A stretch of 33,117 bases of DNA from a virus. Lineage: Duplodnaviria; Heunggongvirae; Uroviricota; Caudoviricetes. The notes beneath the pieces were generated by a model. It was given only the letters and a program-made list of their open reading frames with translations, was not told where the DNA came from and did no database searches. Location of the stretch: the IMG/VR virus record IMGVR_UViG_2545824709_000011, positions 1 through 33,117 of that record; one strand, 5' to 3'. This document shows, one piece after another, positions 1,935 to 29,228 of the stretch; the first letter of the stretch is position 1, and every line of letters starts with the position of its first letter. The translations under genes were made by a program, and so were the position numbers.

Positions 1935-3098
1935 TCACTCATCATCTTCTGTTTCGTACTCCACATCAGAAAGCCTGACCTCAAGCTCTAAGGACGTCGT
2001 GAAGCCGCTATTATTCAGAAAATGTGTCACCTTAGTGATTGTCCAGTCCTGCTCGTCTATGACGCGCTTAAAGCCAGACACTTTGACCGGTGTTTCCGTG
2101 TAAATATCTGCCCGACCGGTAGCCAGGCTGATGGAGAACTCCGCAACGCCCCGTTGCAGTTTATCCCACTTCGCCTGAGCGGCGCGCATGGCCTGCGCTT
2201 TCGTGGCATATACCGTGGTCAGGGCAAAAACGTTGTCAGCCTCACCGGCCATGTATTCACCTTCACGCGCTTCCGGTACTTTAAGCGCTTTCTTCTGCCT
2301 GACCGGTTTCGCTTTCGGGTGCTCCAGTGCGCGCAGGTGTTTCTCTTTCTTTTTACGTTTCAGTTTTACCTTCTGCTTTTGAGGCTTCGGGTCTTTGGTG
2401 TGTAGCCATTTTGCCGTTACACCGGTGTAGGCTCCACGGTCAGCAATCGCAAAATGATGGCGGTCGCCGTCGCTGCGGGTTATGGTGACCTGCGGGATTT
2501 TTTTACCGCTGGCCGTCACTCCCTGCCCCGCTTTGAGAAACAACAGTTTTCCCATTTTTACCGACACCTCACCGCCGTTGCGTTCTGCAAGACGGGTCAG
2601 GAATTTCGCATCAGACTCCTGCGACTGGTCGATGTGCGGGATTTTAATTCCGGCCAGTGACGGCGCGACACTGGCTTCCAGCCTGTTACGGGAGGCTATC
2701 ACCTCAACAATCGCACCGAGCGTGGTGTCATGCCAGGAGCCTTCACGGCGGGAATTGAGCGTCCCGCGAAAATCTGCACTCCGGGCGCGGATGGTAACCA
2801 CATCCGGCGCGCCCCGGTGTTCAACCTCATCAACGGTAAATTTCCCTTTGCATACCAGGGCAAAACCTTTCCAGCCGATATACACCGTCAGGACAGCGCC
2901 ACGAACCGGCAGCCCGACCTGCCCGTCGGCATCGTTCAGTTCAATATCAAGCTGGTCAGCCTCAAAGCCCCGGTTATCCGTCAGGGTCATGCTCATCAGA
3001 CGGTCACTGATATTGCTGGTAATATCCCTGCTGTCGAGCATCAGCATGTAATCCGGCGTCAGCGTACTGCCTGCATCAAATGTCAGCGCATCCAGCAT
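1935..3098 (-). CDS. D: Tail protein D (late control gene D)
   Basis: 387-aa ORF; position after U and before ogr and the sequence match P2 gpD. Confidence 0.9.
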   Translation of the reverse strand: MLDALTFDAGSTLTPDYMLMLDSRDITSNISDRLMSMTLTDNRGFEADQLDIELNDADGQVGLPVRGAVLTVYIGWKGFALVCKGKFTVDEVEHRGAPDVVTIRARSADFRGTLNSRREGSWHDTTLGAIVEVIASRNRLEASVAPSLAGIKIPHIDQSQESDAKFLTRLAERNGGEVSVKMGKLLFLKAGQGVTASGKKIPQVTITRSDGDRHHFAIADRGAYTGVTAKWLHTKDPKPQKQKVKLKRKKKEKHLRALEHPKAKPVRQKKALKVPEAREGEYMAGEADNVFALTTVYATKAQAMRAAQAKWDKLQRGVAEFSISLATGRADIYTETPVKVSGFKRVIDEQDWTITKVTHFLNNSGFTTSLELEVRLSDVEYETEDDE

Positions 3099-3577
3099 TA
3101 TCCCGCCCCCGTCATACCCGTGAATTTAGTCGCCATACTGCCAGCCTTACCGATGAGCGATTCCGCCTGTTTACCGATATCGCCATAAAGCGCGGCCAGT
3201 GATTCATCAACGCGGGTGAGCGACAGCGTAAAATCAATTTTCCGGGGTGTGCCGTCTGCAAAGAAAATACTCCCTGTTTCACTCACCCTGCTGATGACAT
3301 ACATGCCGTAAATCATGCCGGTGCCATCCAGCAACGGCCACGCCCGGCCTTCCTCTGCCATCAGCCTGAGCGTGGTCATCGTCAGCTTGCCGCCGGTCAG
3401 TTCGGGATAAAGCACGCCGGCAAGCGTAATGTTTTCCTCACCCACACCGAGATACTGAAAGGCATCCCGTTTACCGATACGGGAATTTGACGGCCAGCGA
3501 TAATCTGATTCACGCTGCATGGTCTGGTGTGGCAACGTCTGGCGCATAAAAACAAACATACCTAACGCGAGCATCAT
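3098..3577 (-). CDS. U: Tail protein U
   Basis: 159-aa ORF; synteny T-U-D; start overlaps the D region as in P2. Confidence 0.85.
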   Translation of the reverse strand: MMLALGMFVFMRQTLPHQTMQRESDYRWPSNSRIGKRDAFQYLGVGEENITLAGVLYPELTGGKLTMTTLRLMAEEGRAWPLLDGTGMIYGMYVISRVSETGSIFFADGTPRKIDFTLSLTRVDESLAALYGDIGKQAESLIGKAGSMATKFTGMTGAG

Positions 3578-6039: not shown

Positions 6040-6459
6040 TCGTGTTTCCGCTTCGCCGGAGCGCCTTTTCGCGCCATGTGATGAGTTCGGTCAGGCTCAT
6101 GGGATACAGTTCTGATGGCGGCCAGTGAAATATCACTGCCACATCCGCCATCAGGTCATCGACCGAGAGATTTTTCGGAAACGTTACTGCACCGAGTTCG
6201 GCGACAAAAAACCGACCACCTTACCGGCCAGTGCCACAAGGTCAGGCAGTTCCAGCGCGGCGACCTCCTGCTCGGTCAGCATCGGTGCCGTCATGCGCGG
6301 CAGCACTTTAATCAGTGCATCGACTTCGGAGTTTGCGACCGCAGCCAGACTGACACCGCGCAGCGTCCCGGCATTGGGTTTCATCAGCGTGACCTGTTCG
6401 ATAACCTGCTCACCACGCTTGACCGGATTGTCCAGGGTAATCACATTTTCTTTGTTCAT
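6032..6459 (-). CDS. E: Tail assembly chaperone E+E' (programmed -1 frameshift product, about 142 aa)
   Basis: E ORF (91 aa, 6184-6459) contains slippery heptamer T_TTT_TTG; following the -1 frame by hand reaches a TAA at 6032-6034, giving 85+57 = 142 codons. Confidence 0.75.
6184..6459 (-). CDS. E: Tail assembly chaperone E (zero-frame product, 91 aa)
   Basis: 91-aa ORF MNKENVITLDNPVKRGEQVIEQ ending KVVGFLSPNSVQ; sits between FII and T. Confidence 0.9.
   Translation of the reverse strand: MNKENVITLDNPVKRGEQVIEQVTLMKPNAGTLRGVSLAAVANSEVDALIKVLPRMTAPMLTEQEVAALELPDLVALAGKVVGFLSPNSVQ
6205..6211 (-). promoter_or_regulatory. Programmed -1 ribosomal frameshift slippery site (T TTT TTG) for E/E'
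   Basis: Minus-strand GGT TTT TTG at codons 83-85 of E; classic X_XXY_YYZ heptamer at the position expected for the tail chaperone frameshift. Confidence 0.75.
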
Positions 6460-23744: not shown

Positions 23745-24362
23745 TCAAGCAGATAGGCAAAACGTTTCTGTTTGCCCCAAGTGTTCAAACACAGTAATCG
23801 ATGTTACTTTTCCGGCACTTATTTTGTTAAGGAACTTCAATATTTGTTGAGGCTCCTCCATGACTGCTGTTTTCTTGATTATAAATCCCTCAAGATTTTT
23901 CAAGCTGTATCGCTGACTTGAGTTCTCAAGAGCAGCAATCATTGCCGAACTGCGCATATCTCTATGTCCACTAGCTCTACAAACGACAGCATAATTTAAA
24001 TTAAGCTCTACAAAATTTTGCCTTGTCAACTCTGGAAGGTGTTTACATACAAAATGAAATAAAGTCGTAACACCTTCATGTATTTTCAACCTTATATCAT
24101 CCTTTTGTGAACGTCCTTCTTTAAATTCAATGAAGTACAATTTATCTTCATATAAAAATAAAGCATCCGGTGATTTTTCTTTAAACTCACGCTTATAAAC
24201 AGGCGAGCAATTTAACACCGTATCATAGTTAAAGCCCTTCGAATCACAAATAATAAAATTCCGAGCCCCTGCATCATTGTAGCTTAATCCGGTTACATCA
24301 ACCATTGAATCAGGGTATACTTCACACAGTTTTCTAAAAACAAGTTCCTCATTAGAAATCAT
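23745..24362 (-). CDS. Hypothetical 205-aa partner protein of the ATPase (candidate defence effector)
   Basis: ORF overlaps the upstream ATPase gene by 11 nt; AGGAG ribosome-binding site 8 nt upstream; AT-rich; contains a D...E-x-K-like stretch (LFLYEDKLYFIEFKEG) but no motif I can assign with confidence. Confidence 0.6.
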   Translation of the reverse strand: MISNEELVFRKLCEVYPDSMVDVTGLSYNDAGARNFIICDSKGFNYDTVLNCSPVYKREFKEKSPDALFLYEDKLYFIEFKEGRSQKDDIRLKIHEGVTTLFHFVCKHLPELTRQNFVELNLNYAVVCRASGHRDMRSSAMIAALENSSQRYSLKNLEGFIIKKTAVMEEPQQILKFLNKISAGKVTSITVFEHLGQTETFCLSA

Positions 24363-25680
24363 CCAAATACTCCTGATTCAATTCTTTTAATGGTGATGCC
24401 AAAAGATTAATTGCATATGCAACATTATCAGTAATATCAACAAAAGATGTAAACTCTTCCCCAGGGAATCGCTCGCTTATATAGAACCGATTTTCAATCC
24501 CAATTTTATCGCTATAATGTTTAAGAGCATCAATAATATACGGGCTATGTGTTGTAATTATTATATCAACCCCCATAGACACTAACTCACAAATAATCTC
24601 AGCATAGAAAACCTGCCATTTTGGATGTAAGTTCACCTCTGGCTCATCAATAATCAGTAACGAGTTATCTACTGCTGCCCCGCACTTAACAAGCATATCA
24701 AGAATACCTAAAGACTTTATTCCTGACGCAATATTACCCGATGTGACTTTATAGCCTTGCTTCTCTAGAAAAAAATCATTCTTTTCAATATCATAAACCA
24801 CTTCACCACAGAAAGTAGCATTGATTTTGTTAGATATACGCAGTGACTCTTTTAAAAATGAGCCATCATCAAAAATATCCGAATGCACAAATAAATTATA
24901 AACTGAATCGCTTAATTTTATTGATAGATCTTTCACATGCAATGGAACAGTTAGACGTCCTGATTCACCATTACTATCAAATAAAGTTTTAGCAAAACGA
25001 ACCAAATTATGAAATTGCATAATACTTGGAGAGTCAACATAGGTTGCGTCGACATATCCTAAACCATCAGTATAATCAAATTGTGATATACCATCTTTAG
25101 TCCATTTAATATCAATTAACTGACTAACACCATCAACAACTTCCAGAGATGCTTTAACTGGATTTTGATTACCCTTCTGAATAATTTCGCCTCTAAATTC
25201 AGAGTAAAAGGCCTTACGCAGAGCACGGTTGATAGCAGATAGCTCATCATCTGGCTCAAGCATTATATCTCTGATTTTTCTTATATCAGAGAGTACAGAA
25301 TCAGCCATCAATTCTGGAAGAAGCCCTTCCTCAATCAAATTATATAGATAACTCTCTCTCTCAGCCAAAGTTTTAGAGATATCTATTTTTAGAGAGGCAT
25401 AAAACTTTCTTGGATTGAATAACTCTCTAATTTCCGGCGTAGCAGCAATATTAATCCTCCTACGCAGATTAAAATATATTTTCTCTACGATAGATGTAAT
25501 TCTATCCTCTTTGTCTTCTTCTAAATCCTCTTGATAACGAGATATCGCCTTTACCATTGAAAACAATATTTTCCCTACGGTACTCTTCCCCGTATCATTT
25601 TCACCAGTTATGACAGTTAAACCACCAACTGAAACATCAGCTTCTGCAATAGTTCCAAAATTATTAATTTTTATACGCAT
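24352..25680 (-). CDS. ABC/OLD-family (AAA_15/AAA_21-like) ATPase, 442 aa (candidate defence ATPase)
   Basis: Walker A GENDTGKST near the N-terminus; long helical insert; C-terminal Walker B/D-loop LLIIDEPEVNLHP and H-loop IIITTHSP; AT-rich cargo between Q and cos. Confidence 0.7.
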   Translation of the reverse strand: MRIKINNFGTIAEADVSVGGLTVITGENDTGKSTVGKILFSMVKAISRYQEDLEEDKEDRITSIVEKIYFNLRRRINIAATPEIRELFNPRKFYASLKIDISKTLAERESYLYNLIEEGLLPELMADSVLSDIRKIRDIMLEPDDELSAINRALRKAFYSEFRGEIIQKGNQNPVKASLEVVDGVSQLIDIKWTKDGISQFDYTDGLGYVDATYVDSPSIMQFHNLVRFAKTLFDSNGESGRLTVPLHVKDLSIKLSDSVYNLFVHSDIFDDGSFLKESLRISNKINATFCGEVVYDIEKNDFFLEKQGYKVTSGNIASGIKSLGILDMLVKCGAAVDNSLLIIDEPEVNLHPKWQVFYAEIICELVSMGVDIIITTHSPYIIDALKHYSDKIGIENRFYISERFPGEEFTSFVDITDNVAYAINLLASPLKELNQEYLDDF

Positions 25681-25773
25681 AAACTATCTCACTGTACGCC
25701 AGATATCCAACCTTATGAATACTTTAGCATATTTCCAAAAAGATGACACTGGTGGTTGCAGGCCTCGCGCGCA

Positions 25774-25792
25774 GTGCTTTCCCCGCCTCGCC
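25774..25792. other. cos site (19-nt cohesive end sequence, reverse complement of GGCGAGGCGGGGAAAGCAC)
   Basis: Plus strand reads GTGCTTTCCCCGCCTCGCC, preceded by GCGCGCA; matches the P2 left cohesive end as I recall it. Confidence 0.8.
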
Positions 25793-26077
25793 CGCCCGCT
25801 TCACGGGGCGGTTTTAATGCAGTTGCATAGATACTATGGATCCGCACCAGTCCTGACCGCACGCAGCCTGAACGGACATCCCCAGCGCATGCAAAAACAT
25901 TCACTTGTTGCATGCATAGCTTTTTAAGTACGCCATACCGCAACTGTACATTTTTAAGCAATTGGCAACTTTAAAAAATTTACATTGCTTTCAAGACCTT
26001 ATCATCCGTAGTCTCTGTTTTTTACTTTGAGCTACATCAATAAAATCTCAAACATGTTTAATGCAAAGCCCTTGTTA

Positions 26078-26130
26078 CACAACATAGAATGTATGTCTAG
26101 AAACAACGACATACTATATGTTGTGTTTTT
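26078..26130 (+). terminator. Imperfect long hairpin followed by TTTTT (terminator-like or regulatory RNA structure)
   Basis: CACAACATA-GAATGTATGTC ... GACATAC-TATATGTTGTG then TTTTT. Confidence 0.4.
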
Positions 26131-26270
26131 CCGGCTCTCTGTTCGGTGATATGCCAAATCACTTTGCGTTTAAACAGAGCATTATTTCAGGGCAAGACTT
26201 CGCTCAAAAGTCATTCCACCTAAGAAGCGCATATACCGGTGGAAGTTGCCCTCTACTTACAGGAGGCAAT

Positions 26271-26384
26271 ATGAAGAAATGCTATTACTGCATTCTCGTT
26301 CTGGCCCTCTTTGGCTATCCAAACGGTAGTCCGAGTGGTTTGTCAGTAAACGTCAGTAATATCAATGTCAGCATTATGCTTTAA
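26271..26384 (+). CDS. Small hydrophobic peptide (37 aa), hypothetical
   Basis: ATG preceded by consensus AGGAGG with 4-nt spacer; product MKKCYYCILVLALFGYPNGSPSGLSVNVSNINVSIML; strong terminator directly downstream; internal start preferred over the 88-aa track ORF. Confidence 0.45.
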   Translation: MKKCYYCILVLALFGYPNGSPSGLSVNVSNINVSIML

Positions 26385-26395
26385 TATGCTTCAAA

Positions 26396-26427
26396 CAAAA
26401 AAACCACCTGCCAGGGTGGTTTTTTTG
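26396..26427. terminator. Bidirectional rho-independent terminator (A-tract, hairpin, T-tract)
   Basis: AAAAAAACCACC-TGCCAG-GGTGGTTTTTTT; serves the small plus-strand ORF and, on the minus strand, lies about 260 bp past the gene A stop. Confidence 0.75.
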
Positions 26428-26686
26428 CGCCCATCATCAATACGATGAAAGACTGACAAGACTTCGCTCAAGACGAATTATGCGTCGACATAAGGTTACC
26501 CGCAATGATTTTATTAGACTAAATGGATGGCCTTTTATGACCCGGATCAAACGGCTGTCCTTACCGACATGCTAGTCACTCAATAGCATTTAGCCTTCTA
26601 ATTCAGCATGCTATTGACCTTCTGCTGCCCCATAACTGCTCCGCATAAGCCATTCAATGCCATATCAAATCACGTTGTGTTTTTAC

Positions 26687-28963
26687 TCAAATGGGTAACG
26701 AGAACCCCGGCCACTCATCAGCAACCGGATACGTGAATTTTTTCCCGTCATAATTTACGGTCGCGCCACGCGCCAGCGCCTCAAGCTCCCATCGTTGCGG
26801 CCTGATACCGTTCTGAGCGAGGTCAACGCGGATACGGGTAATTTGCAATCGTTCAGACCTGGTCAGTCTGGCAGATGGTGCAATTTCATGCGGTTTTAAC
26901 GGGATTCCGTTTCTTTGCTGACGATTTGGTGTTCTCAGTCCGTGTTTTAATGCGCCCCTGAGCACCATCACTACCTCCGGGTCACTCCATTCGATAACAC
27001 CGTCATCTACCAGATTAAGCACTGCTGCGGCGTGCTCAGAAGGTGTGGGAGCCGGTAACGAAGTATCACCACCGGTGAGCTTTCCACAGTTATTGACAGG
27101 ACTCCGAGGCGCGGCGATGCCGCTTTTTAAAGTTAAAGGCTCCACGACCGGAACTTTCGGAACAATGCGCCAGTCCGTCGTTCTGGTGATATGAATATGA
27201 CGCGCGCCGAGATGCGGCGCGTAAATGCCGACCACTCTCTCGACTTCTTCCTCGTACTCGTTAACTTCATCCGACGGGCTACGGGCGACTCTGACAGTCT
27301 GGCAATCGCGCGGAACATTTGCCCCACCCTGCGCACTGATATACAACGCAAAATCGCCACTGTCTGCGGCAGCGCGTGCAGCCTCGACGCGTTCGTCAAA
27401 CTCATCAGCAATGCTGACGCCGCGAGGCAATTTGCGTAGTTCACGGTAAGCCCCCATTGTCGGCAGACCAACCGTTTTAAATTGCGGGATGCGCCACGTT
27501 GACGCCCATGCAGTAACAGCCGCGGCAGTATCTTTCAGAGGTCTGCCGGTATCGTTATCGAGCTGACCATCCAGTGCATAGCCGTCGATATTTTTTGAAA
27601 TGTATTTCGCGATATACCCCGCAGCACCGCCCCGGTTAAGGTGTTTCGCCTGAAAACGGTTTCGCTCGGCTCCTCTTTCGTCGCCATCCTCTTTGAGCGC
27701 GTAGCGACGCATGGTTTCGATAATCTGGTTACGCTGACGTGGATTACAAAAAAGCATCATATGCCAGTGCGGCGTTCCGTCGTGGTGTGGCTCGACGACA
27801 CGCAAACCGTAGACCTGTAAATCATTATCCTTGAATGCCGTGCGCATCAGGCTCCAGATGCGGCAGAGATAACGCTGCGCATCCTTTGGATTAAATGCCT
27901 CATCGTTCCAGCCGTGATTTAGCTGGACGGTTTTACTTTCACCTTTTCCGACCTGACGTGTCGGGTGATACTTTGACGGCGCGGTCAGCGTGATAAACAT
28001 CCCCACATCACCCTCTGCGGCGGCGTAACGCTCAATACCGGCAATGGTGTTCATCAGCTCCATCCGGCGAATTTCAGGATTAGAAATACTTCCCATCACC
28101 TTACTGATAAGGTCGATGCGCTCGCCGGTTTCCCTGTTTTCAAGGTCACACGATTTAAGAAATTCCAGATTTGCCTGGCGGCGCGCACGCACATCACGAA
28201 TGGCATGTTTACTGGCATAAGGAGAACGGTCTTTATTCACCTCCCCGACAGCAATCAGTAACGCCTCATGCCAGCGCATACGCTGACCTTTAAGCTGATG
28301 AGTCCACCACTCATCGTTAAACAGACGGGCAATGGCAGAATATGCCTGCCTCGTGGTCATCTGTCCTTTACGGTATTTTTTCCAGTAGAGAGGGGAAATA
28401 TTGAAAGCTCGTGCAGCGCCAGCAACATGACCATACAGATGCGCCTGAGCCTCATCCGTAAACAGCGATTCTTTCTCGCCATGTGCATCAACCCATGCAT
28501 CGCAGAGTTCCTCATACATCATGAAAAGCTGCGATGAGATACGGGCGGCAAACTTTTTCAGTTCCTTGTCATTCATCCCCGGCAGACGCGCATAATGGTC
28601 ACGCTCTGCCAGAAACAGCAACGACGCGTCGGTGTTCATTTCATGGCGCTGATTCACGCGCTCAATGCGCGGCCATAAACGACGCTGAAAAGTGGATGTG
28701 AGGAAATAAAACCCGTGCACCGGGCTTTTATTGCGCCGGATGTAGTCATAGCGTGAAGTAAACAGCGAGCGCAAAAAGTAAGGCAGGCGGTTAATCGTGG
28801 ATAAAACACCTTGCACCTGACGCATCTCGTCACGTGTAAGGGGTCTTTCGCGCCCGACAGCCTCGCGTGGCGCGTTCCATGCATAAGCACCGGTAAACGC
28901 CTTACCGGTGCCTGCGGCAAATGCTGATGGAGGGACAAAACGCCCGGAGGCTTTAACGGCCAT
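26687..28963 (-). CDS. A: Replication initiation protein A (rolling-circle endonuclease)
   Basis: About 758-aa product starting MAVKASGRFVPPSAFAAGTGK; the ORF-track start 14 codons upstream is a TTG, so ATG at 28963 is preferred. Confidence 0.85.
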   Translation of the reverse strand: MAVKASGRFVPPSAFAAGTGKAFTGAYAWNAPREAVGRERPLTRDEMRQVQGVLSTINRLPYFLRSLFTSRYDYIRRNKSPVHGFYFLTSTFQRRLWPRIERVNQRHEMNTDASLLFLAERDHYARLPGMNDKELKKFAARISSQLFMMYEELCDAWVDAHGEKESLFTDEAQAHLYGHVAGAARAFNISPLYWKKYRKGQMTTRQAYSAIARLFNDEWWTHQLKGQRMRWHEALLIAVGEVNKDRSPYASKHAIRDVRARRQANLEFLKSCDLENRETGERIDLISKVMGSISNPEIRRMELMNTIAGIERYAAAEGDVGMFITLTAPSKYHPTRQVGKGESKTVQLNHGWNDEAFNPKDAQRYLCRIWSLMRTAFKDNDLQVYGLRVVEPHHDGTPHWHMMLFCNPRQRNQIIETMRRYALKEDGDERGAERNRFQAKHLNRGGAAGYIAKYISKNIDGYALDGQLDNDTGRPLKDTAAAVTAWASTWRIPQFKTVGLPTMGAYRELRKLPRGVSIADEFDERVEAARAAADSGDFALYISAQGGANVPRDCQTVRVARSPSDEVNEYEEEVERVVGIYAPHLGARHIHITRTTDWRIVPKVPVVEPLTLKSGIAAPRSPVNNCGKLTGGDTSLPAPTPSEHAAAVLNLVDDGVIEWSDPEVVMVLRGALKHGLRTPNRQQRNGIPLKPHEIAPSARLTRSERLQITRIRVDLAQNGIRPQRWELEALARGATVNYDGKKFTYPVADEWPGFSLPI

Positions 28964-29228
28964 ATGAGCCAAAAGCCTCTGAACAACGCTTGCTGAGTTG
29001 CTCAACCTGCGCGTTTAAATCAGCAAAAGACTTTGCGCTTCCGGTCAGAATATCGTGATGCATCATGCCGGAAACGAGCTGGCTTAATTTCGGGTAATAA
29101 CCAACCACCGACAGCCATTCCTGACCGGCGTTTTTACCGCTTTCCGCTCTCTTTTTCTCGTGGAGAATAAACTGAAAGCTGTCACTGGTAACGACATAAC
29201 GTTCGCCAATTTCAATACGAATACTCAT
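28953..29228 (-). CDS. Early-operon small protein (P2 orf83 position)
   Basis: 91-aa ORF between orf82-like and A; synteny only. Confidence 0.6.
   Translation of the reverse strand: MSIRIEIGERYVVTSDSFQFILHEKKRAESGKNAGQEWLSVVGYYPKLSQLVSGMMHHDILTGSAKSFADLNAQVEQLSKRCSEAFGSYGR

Follow-up and report, generated by a model that had tools for sequence, protein, structure and literature searches.

Comparative analysis of a conserved 37-codon gene and its predicted convergent antisense RNA in a mobile cassette resembling type I toxin-antitoxin systems

The 33,117-nucleotide viral record IMGVR_UViG_2545824709_000011, analyzed over its full length and referred to here as the window, is a P2-like prophage that carries a 37-codon open reading frame (ORF) between its cohesive-end site (cos) and gene A. 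Sequence comparison indicates that this ORF is a real, conserved and unannotated gene that is under purifying selection across very different mobile elements, and it is very probably a regulated small-protein gene with a cognate antisense small RNA (sRNA). The best reading of the conserved block around the ORF is a new family of type I toxin-antitoxin (TA)-like cassettes with a promoter captured from host nrdDG as its unusual feature. We hold with moderate confidence that the ORF is the protein gene of such a compact, horizontally mobile cassette. The elements of the cassette are collected in Table 1.

A first-pass annotation made from the letters of the window described the ORF, its 37-amino-acid (aa) product (MKKCYYCILVLALFGYPNGSPSGLSVNVSNINVSIML), an AGGAGG 4 nt 5' of the start and a gap of ~0.9 kb between cos and gene A. 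The start and stop codons, the Shine-Dalgarno (SD) hexamer and the limits of the gap are all found in the sequence as described. The strong SD and the short ORF were also offered as evidence for a gene, and they do not serve as such by themselves because shuffled sequence yields as many. AGGAGG followed by a start codon within 3–9 nt occurs 5 times in the window (both strands) versus 4.95 ± 2.0 times in shuffles, and the 4 kb around the site contain 59 ORFs of at least 20 aa. The ORF and SD alone are no better than chance, and it is the comparison with relatives that makes the case.

The protein variants (n = 18) fall into two subfamilies, the GYP type (e.g. MNRVCLCILVLTLFGYPVGSQSGWSIYVSHINVNISL) and the ISQL type (e.g. 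MNRRDCVCLFVLALISQLVVGQGSWMIYIHQISLSIQVH), and all of them keep the frame and have 37–39 residues. The ORF is intact (37–39 codons) in 45 of the 46 unique cassettes, which represent 18 lineages; the exception is the second terminator copy in an Enterobacter metagenome-assembled genome (L049). The ratio of nonsynonymous to synonymous substitution rates (dN/dS) is 0.1–0.35 wherever synonymous sites are unsaturated, and between the subfamilies these sites are near saturation. Minimum substitutions by codon position are 54/28/73, which is an excess at the third position, and one serine codon switched from AGC to TCT among relatives. Some SD is present in all lineages and reads GGAGG, GGTGG or GGAGA in the relatives. 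The first-pass annotation had proposed looking in other P2-like prophages for a conserved ORF or for disabling frameshifts and stops. The ORF is present there, and across the cassettes it is under purifying selection, with frame and length kept despite near-saturated synonymous divergence. Rare damaged alleles (P0002/P0003) consist of one lost stop, giving a 68-aa read-through into the terminator, and one ORF in which unrelated sequence takes over after residue 16. An in-frame 88-aa extension of the ORF was rejected because a stop closes the 88-aa frame in relatives, and the other ORFs of the interval, 26480–26575 (plus strand) and 26437–26550 (minus strand), are closed or unconserved in relatives.

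A predicted sRNA gene converges on the ORF from the minus strand. The opposite strand had been suggested as a place to look for an antisense sRNA promoter, and a conserved TTGnnn-17/18-CATAAT is present. The CATAAT and the TTG of the −35 element are invariant (46/46 unique cassettes) with a spacing of 17–18, and the spacer sequence varies freely. Single-sequence folds of the sRNA give an open 5' segment, a hairpin and a terminator in all lineages. Of 15 distinct sequences, 14 retain the middle hairpin though its sequence is almost wholly different between lineages, and it is stabler on the minus strand in 13 of the 15. RNAalifold analysis of a MAFFT alignment of the sRNAs recovered the terminator only because the hairpin is too divergent to align by sequence, and single-sequence folds coupled with strand comparison were used in its place. 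Promoter, hairpin and terminator together define a minus-strand convergent sRNA unit with a predicted product.

The cassette contains an exact 15-nt direct repeat (CAAGACTTCGCTCAA) with copy 1 in the mRNA leader (26193–26207) and copy 2 at 26457–26471. The sRNA seed consists of its first 14–18 nt and is the reverse complement of copy 2. The duplex between the sRNA and the leader in the window has 16 bp (−29.1 kcal/mol, z score −5.4), and a duplex of 14–18 bp forms in all 18 lineages with its target at −62 to −80 from the start codon. Both repeat copies change together between lineages (CAAGACTTCGCTC versus TAAGGCTTTGCTC). Over 11 lineage combinations the seed and target are 95% paired with 4 compensatory positions, and the presence of G-U but no A-C intermediates fits a duplex between plus-strand RNA from copy 1 and minus-strand RNA from copy 2. 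In L049 (4500–6060, reverse strand) the small ORF is set apart from the sRNA gene by an insertion with a ~100-aa hydrophobic-rich ORF and a second terminator. The two units each keep a copy of the duplicated terminator.

The first-pass annotation placed a strong bidirectional terminator just downstream of the ORF, and its 13-bp repeat and A7/T7 flanks bear this out. The terminator folds at about −19 kcal/mol on both strands, and a terminator scan passed over it because A/T pairs extend the stem. It is identical in cassettes located independently of terminator bait (BLAST or tblastn). A scan of positions 25600–26800 against Rfam at E ≤ 1 returned only sub-threshold terminator look-alikes (RNAI, Phe leader, P9). 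ColE1 RNAI was rejected as an identification since only the terminator hairpin matches RF00106, at 24–25 bits versus a gathering score of 47. The 27 nt of the terminator are those of the RNAI terminator of some small ColE1-type plasmids, where full-length RNAI scores 80–97 bits, and the terminator-core bait also drew ~30 unrelated ColE1-type plasmid contigs. The exact 27-nt terminator occurs in small contigs (L038–L048, L053, L055, L057, L059, L062, L064, L067, L071, L072) from assemblies of Streptomyces, Micromonospora, Chloroflexota, Clostridium and others, and those in non-enterobacterial assemblies are probably plasmid contamination. Full ColE1-type RNAI (80–97 bits) is present in L039, the only one of this set tested, and in three enterobacterial small-plasmid contigs.

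The mRNA leader has a conserved RNA structure that includes a pseudoknot. A hand-drawn structure consisting of helices P1, P2, P3 and P4 was evaluated on an alignment of 16 leaders versus slid controls. As drawn, 89.9% of the cells are paired (35–50% in the controls), 14 pairs are changed on both sides (1–7 in the controls) and the covariation score is 0.38 (at most 0.11 in the controls). The cells of P1 and P2 are 92–100% paired, and RNAalifold independently recovered both helices plus part of P3. P4 is a pseudoknot that joins the strand 3' of P2 with the loop of P3 and changes from TGCG/CGCA to TCATCAC/GTGATGA. The U-G pairs assign the structure to the plus strand. A fifth helix, P5, overlaps the sRNA target and forms in all 18 lineages (−10.6 to −13.4 kcal/mol) as well as in the minimum-energy fold of the whole mRNA; it covaries between lineage groups as GGGCAA/UUGCCC, GGUGGY/RCCRCC and GGUGAC/GUCACC. 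The P2 loop AUGCCAA keeps UGCCA, which is the terminator loop sequence and hence the complement of the corresponding loop in the sRNA terminator (CUGGCA); a kissing contact between the two loops is possible. A simple SD/anti-SD switch freed by the sRNA (UUGCCCUCU versus AGGAGGCAA) is plausible in the window and was rejected because it is unconserved in other lineages. An imperfect 30-nt direct repeat (73% identity) covers P2 at 26142–26171 and recurs at 26653–26682, just before the gene A stop.

The region upstream of the leader resembles the promoter of chromosomal nrdDG, which encodes the anaerobic ribonucleotide reductase. All 18 cassette lineages match the nrdDG promoter (E values of 1e-12 to 6e-30). 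Homology to the E. coli and Salmonella promoters is 67–80% over 117–176 nt and extends to two FNR boxes 31 bp apart (centre to centre), a TAAAAT-type −10 and a putative pair of NrdR boxes, of which box 1 abuts FNR-1 in most cassette lineages. The cassette copy differs from nrdDG in that it drives the 37-aa ORF with an unrelated leader rather than nrdD, and in the window lineage box 1 is shifted onto the −10 with an 18-bp linker. The linker has 16 bp in sister phage lineages and 15 bp in the L051 type (canonical, 15–16). The NrdR box pair of the window scores 27 versus 17.0 ± 1.3 in shuffles (0/300), and experimentally used E. coli NrdR boxes score 11–14 on the scale used for the single boxes. 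The transcription start is predicted to lie near 26097, giving a leader of ~174 nt. The E. coli nrdDG fragment binds NrdR with a dissociation constant (Kd) of ~150 nM in the presence of adenosine triphosphate (ATP) plus deoxyadenosine triphosphate (dATP) and has a 15-bp box spacing (PMC12176259). This fragment aligns without gaps to Leclercia-type cassettes at 42–43 of 57 positions. nrdDG is FNR-dependent, and its NrdR box 1 overlaps an FNR site (PMC2892513).

This homology reassigns the hairpin plus T5 (26078–26130) that the first-pass annotation took for the upstream half of a tight terminator bracket. The hairpin does fold (26077–26126, −20.1 kcal/mol, z score −4.1), but it is the NrdR-box pair and −10 of the promoter, so the downstream terminator stands and the upstream element is a promoter/operator homologous to nrdDG. 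A terminator at this position was rejected on several grounds: the stem is rich in A and T, relatives have TTGTT in place of the T5, the inner stem is unconserved, the element aligns with the nrdDG NrdR boxes and −10, and there is no plus-strand gene upstream. An Ogr-type late promoter (TGT-N12-ACA, 26094–26111) is present in the window and absent from relatives, and was dropped. Positions 25971–26075 of the window are nearly identical to the E. coli nrdD promoter (L006, 2960–3110), for example in TTGAGCTACATCAA. Plasmid cassettes from other genera differ there, a hint that the nrdD promoter of the local host has been captured repeatedly or has undergone gene conversion with the cassette.

Table 1 Features of the cassette and its surroundings in the window
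Feature	Position	Strand	Remarks
P2-type cos	25774–25792		GTGCTTTCCCCGCCTCGCC; P2 cohesive-end sequence; ~0.9 kb from gene A stop
Whole conserved cassette, ~0.6 kb	25971–26560		Promoter, leader, small ORF, bidirectional terminator and convergent predicted sRNA gene with promoter
Promoter region homologous to E. coli chromosomal nrdDG promoter	25971–26130	+	80% identity over 102 nt, treC-nrdD intergenic region
FNR-2-like box	26027–26040	+	TTGAGCTACATCAA; 9/10 to TTGAT-N4-ATCAA; identical to E. coli nrdD upstream; conserved in all lineages
FNR-1-like box	26058–26071	+	TTAATGCAAAGCCC; degenerate in window lineage; TTGATGCAAATCAC in most others
NrdR box 1	26077–26092	+	ACACAACATAGAATGT; overlaps −10; left arm of upstream hairpin; 13/16 versus NrdR consensus
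−10 hexamer	26085–26090	+	TAGAAT; TA[AG]AAT invariant across lineages, at position of nrdDG TAAAAT
NrdR box 2	26111–26126	+	ATACTATATGTTGTGT; right arm of upstream hairpin; 14/16
Leader helix P1	26137–43 / 26173–79	+	Double changes in 5/7 pairs
Leader helix P2	26146–50 / 26158–62	+	Double changes in 2/5 pairs
Long-range pairing P4	26163–69 with 26227–33	+	Double changes in 4/7 pairs; 92.9% of cells paired
Helix P5	26190–95 with 26246–51	+	GGGCAA with UUGCCC; overlaps predicted sRNA target; 3' strand just 5' of SD
Predicted sRNA target in leader	26191–26206	+	−65 to −80 from ATG, in direct-repeat copy 1
Leader hairpin P3	26214–20 / 26238–44	+	Compensatory CCACC/GGTGG, CCGCC/GGCGG, CCTTC/GAAGG
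Shine-Dalgarno AGGAGG	26261–26266	+	4-nt spacer to ATG
Small protein gene, 37 aa	26271–26384	+	ATG at 26271, TAA ends 26384; intact frame, dN/dS, codon-position bias
Bidirectional intrinsic terminator	26396–26427	both	Perfect 13-bp inverted repeat, A7/T7 flanks; ends mRNA (+) and predicted sRNA (−)
Predicted ~75-nt antisense sRNA	26397–26470	−	5' seed, middle hairpin (26429–26453), terminator
sRNA promoter	26477–26505	−	−35 TTGCGG (26505–26500), 17-nt spacer, −10 CATAAT (26482–26477)
Gene A (replication endonuclease)	26687–29005	−	Stop at 26687

The limits of the cassette were set by homology: in enteric bacteria the block is common to P2-like prophages, an N15-like phage, an inovirus, F-type plasmids or integrative and conjugative elements (ICEs) and Klebsiella plasmids, while the flanks of these unrelated elements differ. 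Distant cassettes were sought with conserved stretches as bait. The cassette adjoins a protelomerase and a CI repressor in the N15-like phage (L036), Zot and a secretin in the Kluyvera inovirus (L050), and traI, a DsbA-like gene and an integrase in F-type plasmids or ICEs (L049, L051, L076). A Salmonella IncF plasmid (L074) and many Klebsiella IncF plasmids (L075) also carry it. It was found in 151 of 5426 complete E. coli genomes (~3%), in 376 of 72,556 PLSDB plasmids (Klebsiella is the source of 359, and 317 are typed as conjugative) and in 36 metagenome contigs. E. coli W/KO11/LY180 is among the lysogens with the cassette. One metagenome contig (L099) has two copies ~2.9 kb apart (3368–3434 and 6290–6354) with different peptide variants. 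Other P2-like phages match ~770 bp of the interval from cos to gene A at 86–88% identity, and relatives sharing this stretch carry different cargo, either retron Ec48 or ImmA/IrrE plus partners.

This distribution has left almost no trace in annotation. A genome scan with an ORF-internal pattern gave zero matches. A protein database search with a padded query returned three clusters only, from which it follows that gene callers rarely call the small ORF. Nothing is annotated at the RefSeq or PLSDB cassette matches inspected, and the ORF is annotated, as a hypothetical protein, in just one GenBank phage record. No prior description was found in the searchable literature, which excludes subscription journals, for the peptide, seed or terminator sequences or for NrdR-linked or Klebsiella-plasmid type I systems. 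In many "complete" E. coli chromosome records the sequence opens at base 1 with the start codon of P2 gene A (e.g. L003, NZ_CP168035.1, NZ_CM130001.1 and NZ_CP029180.1; cassette at ~2274–3174 of the record), which suggests that assembly-rotation software mistook P2 gene A for the chromosomal start gene.

The window also carries defence cargo between cos and the portal gene (23745–25680, minus strand). It consists of a 442-aa AAA_15/AAA_21 ATPase, with best PADLOC matches to HEC-02A, PD-T4-4_A and AriA-like proteins, and a 205-aa partner without a family match. This is the variable defence-cargo position of P2-like phages, and relatives have retron Ec48 or an ImmA/IrrE peptidase plus two unknown genes there.

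The protein has a basic N-terminus, an invariant Cys7 and a hydrophobic core of 13–16 residues followed by a polar, uncharged tail that is rich in Ser/Asn/Gln and has alternating hydrophobic residues. The C-terminal tail conserves the motif G-x-Q/S-S-G-W/L-S-V-x-V-S-x-I-x-V-S-I. The first-pass annotation pointed to a hydrophobic N-terminal segment, which is present at residues 4–17 of the window peptide, but with ~13–14 residues and a 19-residue Kyte-Doolittle maximum of 1.1 it is short and weak for a canonical transmembrane helix. This value falls under the usual transmembrane threshold. The core is longer in other lineages, where the maximum is 1.6–1.9. The segment in the window peptide looks more like a signal-peptide core than a canonical transmembrane helix, and would resemble an uncleaved signal-anchor.

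Type I TA systems combine a small (<~60 aa) hydrophobic, growth-inhibitory protein with an adjacent sRNA gene whose product can base-pair with the toxin mRNA and represses toxin synthesis, and the cassette has a 37–39-aa protein with its core at residues 4–17 and a predicted sRNA gene with such pairing potential. The type I TA-like idea raised by the first-pass annotation is supported by the conserved small hydrophobic ORF under purifying selection and by the predicted convergent sRNA with co-evolving complementarity, and loses its upstream bracketing and SD arguments. Read as a type I TA-like cassette, the mRNA would be made mainly without oxygen, through FNR, and on release of the dATP-loaded NrdR repressor. 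The sRNA, probably constitutive, would bind the leader at −62 to −80 and block translation by opening P5 and disturbing the pseudoknotted leader, by occupying a ribosome standby site or through RNase III cleavage. The peptide would enter, or be exported to, the inner membrane and would inhibit growth when it escapes repression. The cassette would serve the maintenance of mobile elements or a growth arrest triggered by stress or phage.

Several observations weigh against this interpretation. Comparison between lineages shows the small-protein gene, its structured leader, the sRNA gene with its co-evolving complementarity and the homology of the promoter; toxicity and membrane location are attributed to the peptide by analogy only. 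The hydrophobic core of the window peptide is shorter than in classical type I toxins. Five family members scanned against Pfam, NCBIfam and PHROGs have no similarity to known toxin families, and their sole library match is to one PHROG at an E value of 0.34. A single-sequence AlphaFold2 model is of low confidence (predicted local distance difference test score, pLDDT, 60) and informative only for the N-terminal helix. A conserved SD/anti-SD switch was not demonstrated across lineages. The invariance of the terminator is biased because most of the distant cassettes were found with the terminator as bait. A plus-strand promoter-like site, CTGACA-17-AATTAT (26453–26481), overlaps the sRNA promoter. 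This site lies over repeat copy 2 and the sRNA −10, and it is partly conserved because of the bases common to them; if active, it would fire rightwards, antisense to the end of gene A. The 18-bp NrdR linker and degenerate FNR-1 box of the window lineage, together with NrdR boxes that are not significant in the Klebsiella plasmid subgroup, indicate that NrdR/FNR control may differ between lineages.

The most serious alternative, which we think possible though rather unlikely, is that the small protein is membrane-bound or exported but not toxic; its role would be physiological or accessory and tuned by the sRNA, and it would not be half of a TA pair. Such a protein could modulate a membrane protein when cells grow anaerobically or run short of nucleotides, or it could act in superinfection exclusion. 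A short, signal-peptide-like core fits this role, as do co-regulation with the nrdDG regulon, the adjacent P2 defence hotspot and a conserved polar tail motif that suggests a specific partner over generic membrane damage; TimP itself is not growth-inhibitory at native levels (PMC7667032). However, layered repression by an operator, a structured leader and a strongly promoted antisense sRNA, together with occurrence on plasmids, phages and ICEs that are unrelated to each other, is a typical addiction or toxin signature, and no candidate partner gene travels with the cassette. It is very improbable that only the RNAs function, as a regulatory RNA pair or a cis-regulatory element, and that the ORF is incidental. 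Among close relatives the leader and sRNA are more obviously conserved in nucleotides than the ORF, which gene callers almost never call, but frame and length retained in all but one unique cassette despite near-saturated synonymous divergence, the low dN/dS, the third-position excess and the SD in all lineages speak for translation. A third alternative, hardly credible, gives the region no function of its own in P2-like phages: it would be no more than the tail of the early operon (gene A), with the 3' untranslated region and terminator of that operon next to leftovers of a captured nrdD promoter. The promoter is clearly host-derived, and the terminator, 260 nt downstream of the gene A stop and in the same orientation, would stop transcription from A. 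The cassette nevertheless occurs without gene A in plasmids, the inovirus and the N15-like phage with all elements conserved and covarying, a distribution that already contradicts this explanation.

The closest parallels to the type I TA-like reading are found in known sRNA-controlled toxin genes. The timP/timR (RyfA/TimR) type I TA system of enterobacteria shares with the cassette a protein of ~38–41 aa with a signal-peptide-like N-terminal half and a CxC-I motif near its start, a ~300-nt mRNA with a long structured leader and a leader pseudoknot central to control, and an sRNA whose 5' end pairs with the 5' untranslated region far upstream of the ribosome-binding site. The leader pseudoknot and the 5'-end pairing of the sRNA are described for timPR (PMC7667032, PMC11228461), and TimP is reported to be an uncleaved signal-anchor (PMC7667032). 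The common M-K-x-x-C-x-C-I start suggested homology to TimP, which was rejected by profile tests: the NCBIfam TimP model NF040796 scores E. coli TimP at 86.8 bits and does not match the cassette peptides, and hhalign gives a probability of 6.4% over 10 aligned columns. The Rfam scan of the interval gave no match to RyfA (RF00126). Unlike the cassette sRNA, which is convergent, downstream and shares the terminator, timR in K-12 is divergent and lies upstream on the opposite strand, and timPR is chromosomal, whereas the cassette resides on mobile elements with an nrdDG-type promoter.

The layout of the cassette resembles par (Fst/RNA II) of the Enterococcus plasmid pAD1 (PMC7472228), which has convergent promoters, a shared bidirectional intrinsic terminator, complementarity from direct repeats transcribed in opposite directions, a peptide of ~33–37 aa and a location on mobile elements. 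The cassette has one repeat pair, whereas par has DRa plus DRb, and its repeat lies 62–80 nt upstream of the start codon and not over the initiation region as in par. The cassette peptide lacks the PXXXG motif and charged C-terminal tail that are features of Fst/Ldr (PMC7472228). The cassette peptides have no Pfam or NCBIfam match at E ≤ 10. The hosts of the cassette, unlike those of par, are Gram-negative.

The tisB/istR-1 system of E. coli, with which zorO/orzO, dinQ/agrB and shoB/ohsC are grouped, has an sRNA that acts far upstream of the ribosome-binding site on a structured leader with a standby site or pseudoknot. The sRNAs of this group are divergent and upstream and its toxins have longer transmembrane helices than the cassette peptide. 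The tie between toxin transcription and a stress regulon, LexA for tisB and dinQ (PMC11228461), would have a counterpart in the cassette, where the regulon would be FNR/NrdR and not SOS. The combination of a small hydrophobic peptide and an antisense RNA on conjugative plasmids and prophages is also that of hok/sok, which makes post-segregational killing an obvious candidate role by analogy. hok/sok has no sequence similarity to the cassette. Hok has ~50 aa and is translated via a coupled leader ORF (mok), and the overlapping Sok RNA acts at the 5' end.

The cassette is missing both from current annotation and from the libraries searched (Pfam, NCBIfam, PHROGs and Rfam). Its leader would join that of timP as the second natural case in which an sRNA targets a pseudoknotted leader through its 5' end, and the cassette illustrates how a regulatory module can be put together from existing pieces, here a promoter of the host, a terminator of ColE1 type and a seed sequence present in two copies. 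To our knowledge, a toxin gene wired to an nrdDG-derived promoter bearing FNR and NrdR sites would be new, and this arrangement leads to the testable hypothesis that a membrane peptide of mobile elements is coupled to oxygen and deoxynucleoside triphosphate (dNTP) status. A bolder proposal, which we offer tentatively and consider unlikely as it stands, is that the cassette is a new TA family that would release a membrane-active peptide specifically when cells are anoxic and the dATP signal of NrdR collapses, as in replication stress or possibly a nucleotide-consuming lytic phage infection, with growth arrest, abortive infection or post-segregational killing as the outcome. If this were true, mobile elements would exploit the cell's own dNTP sensor as a trigger.

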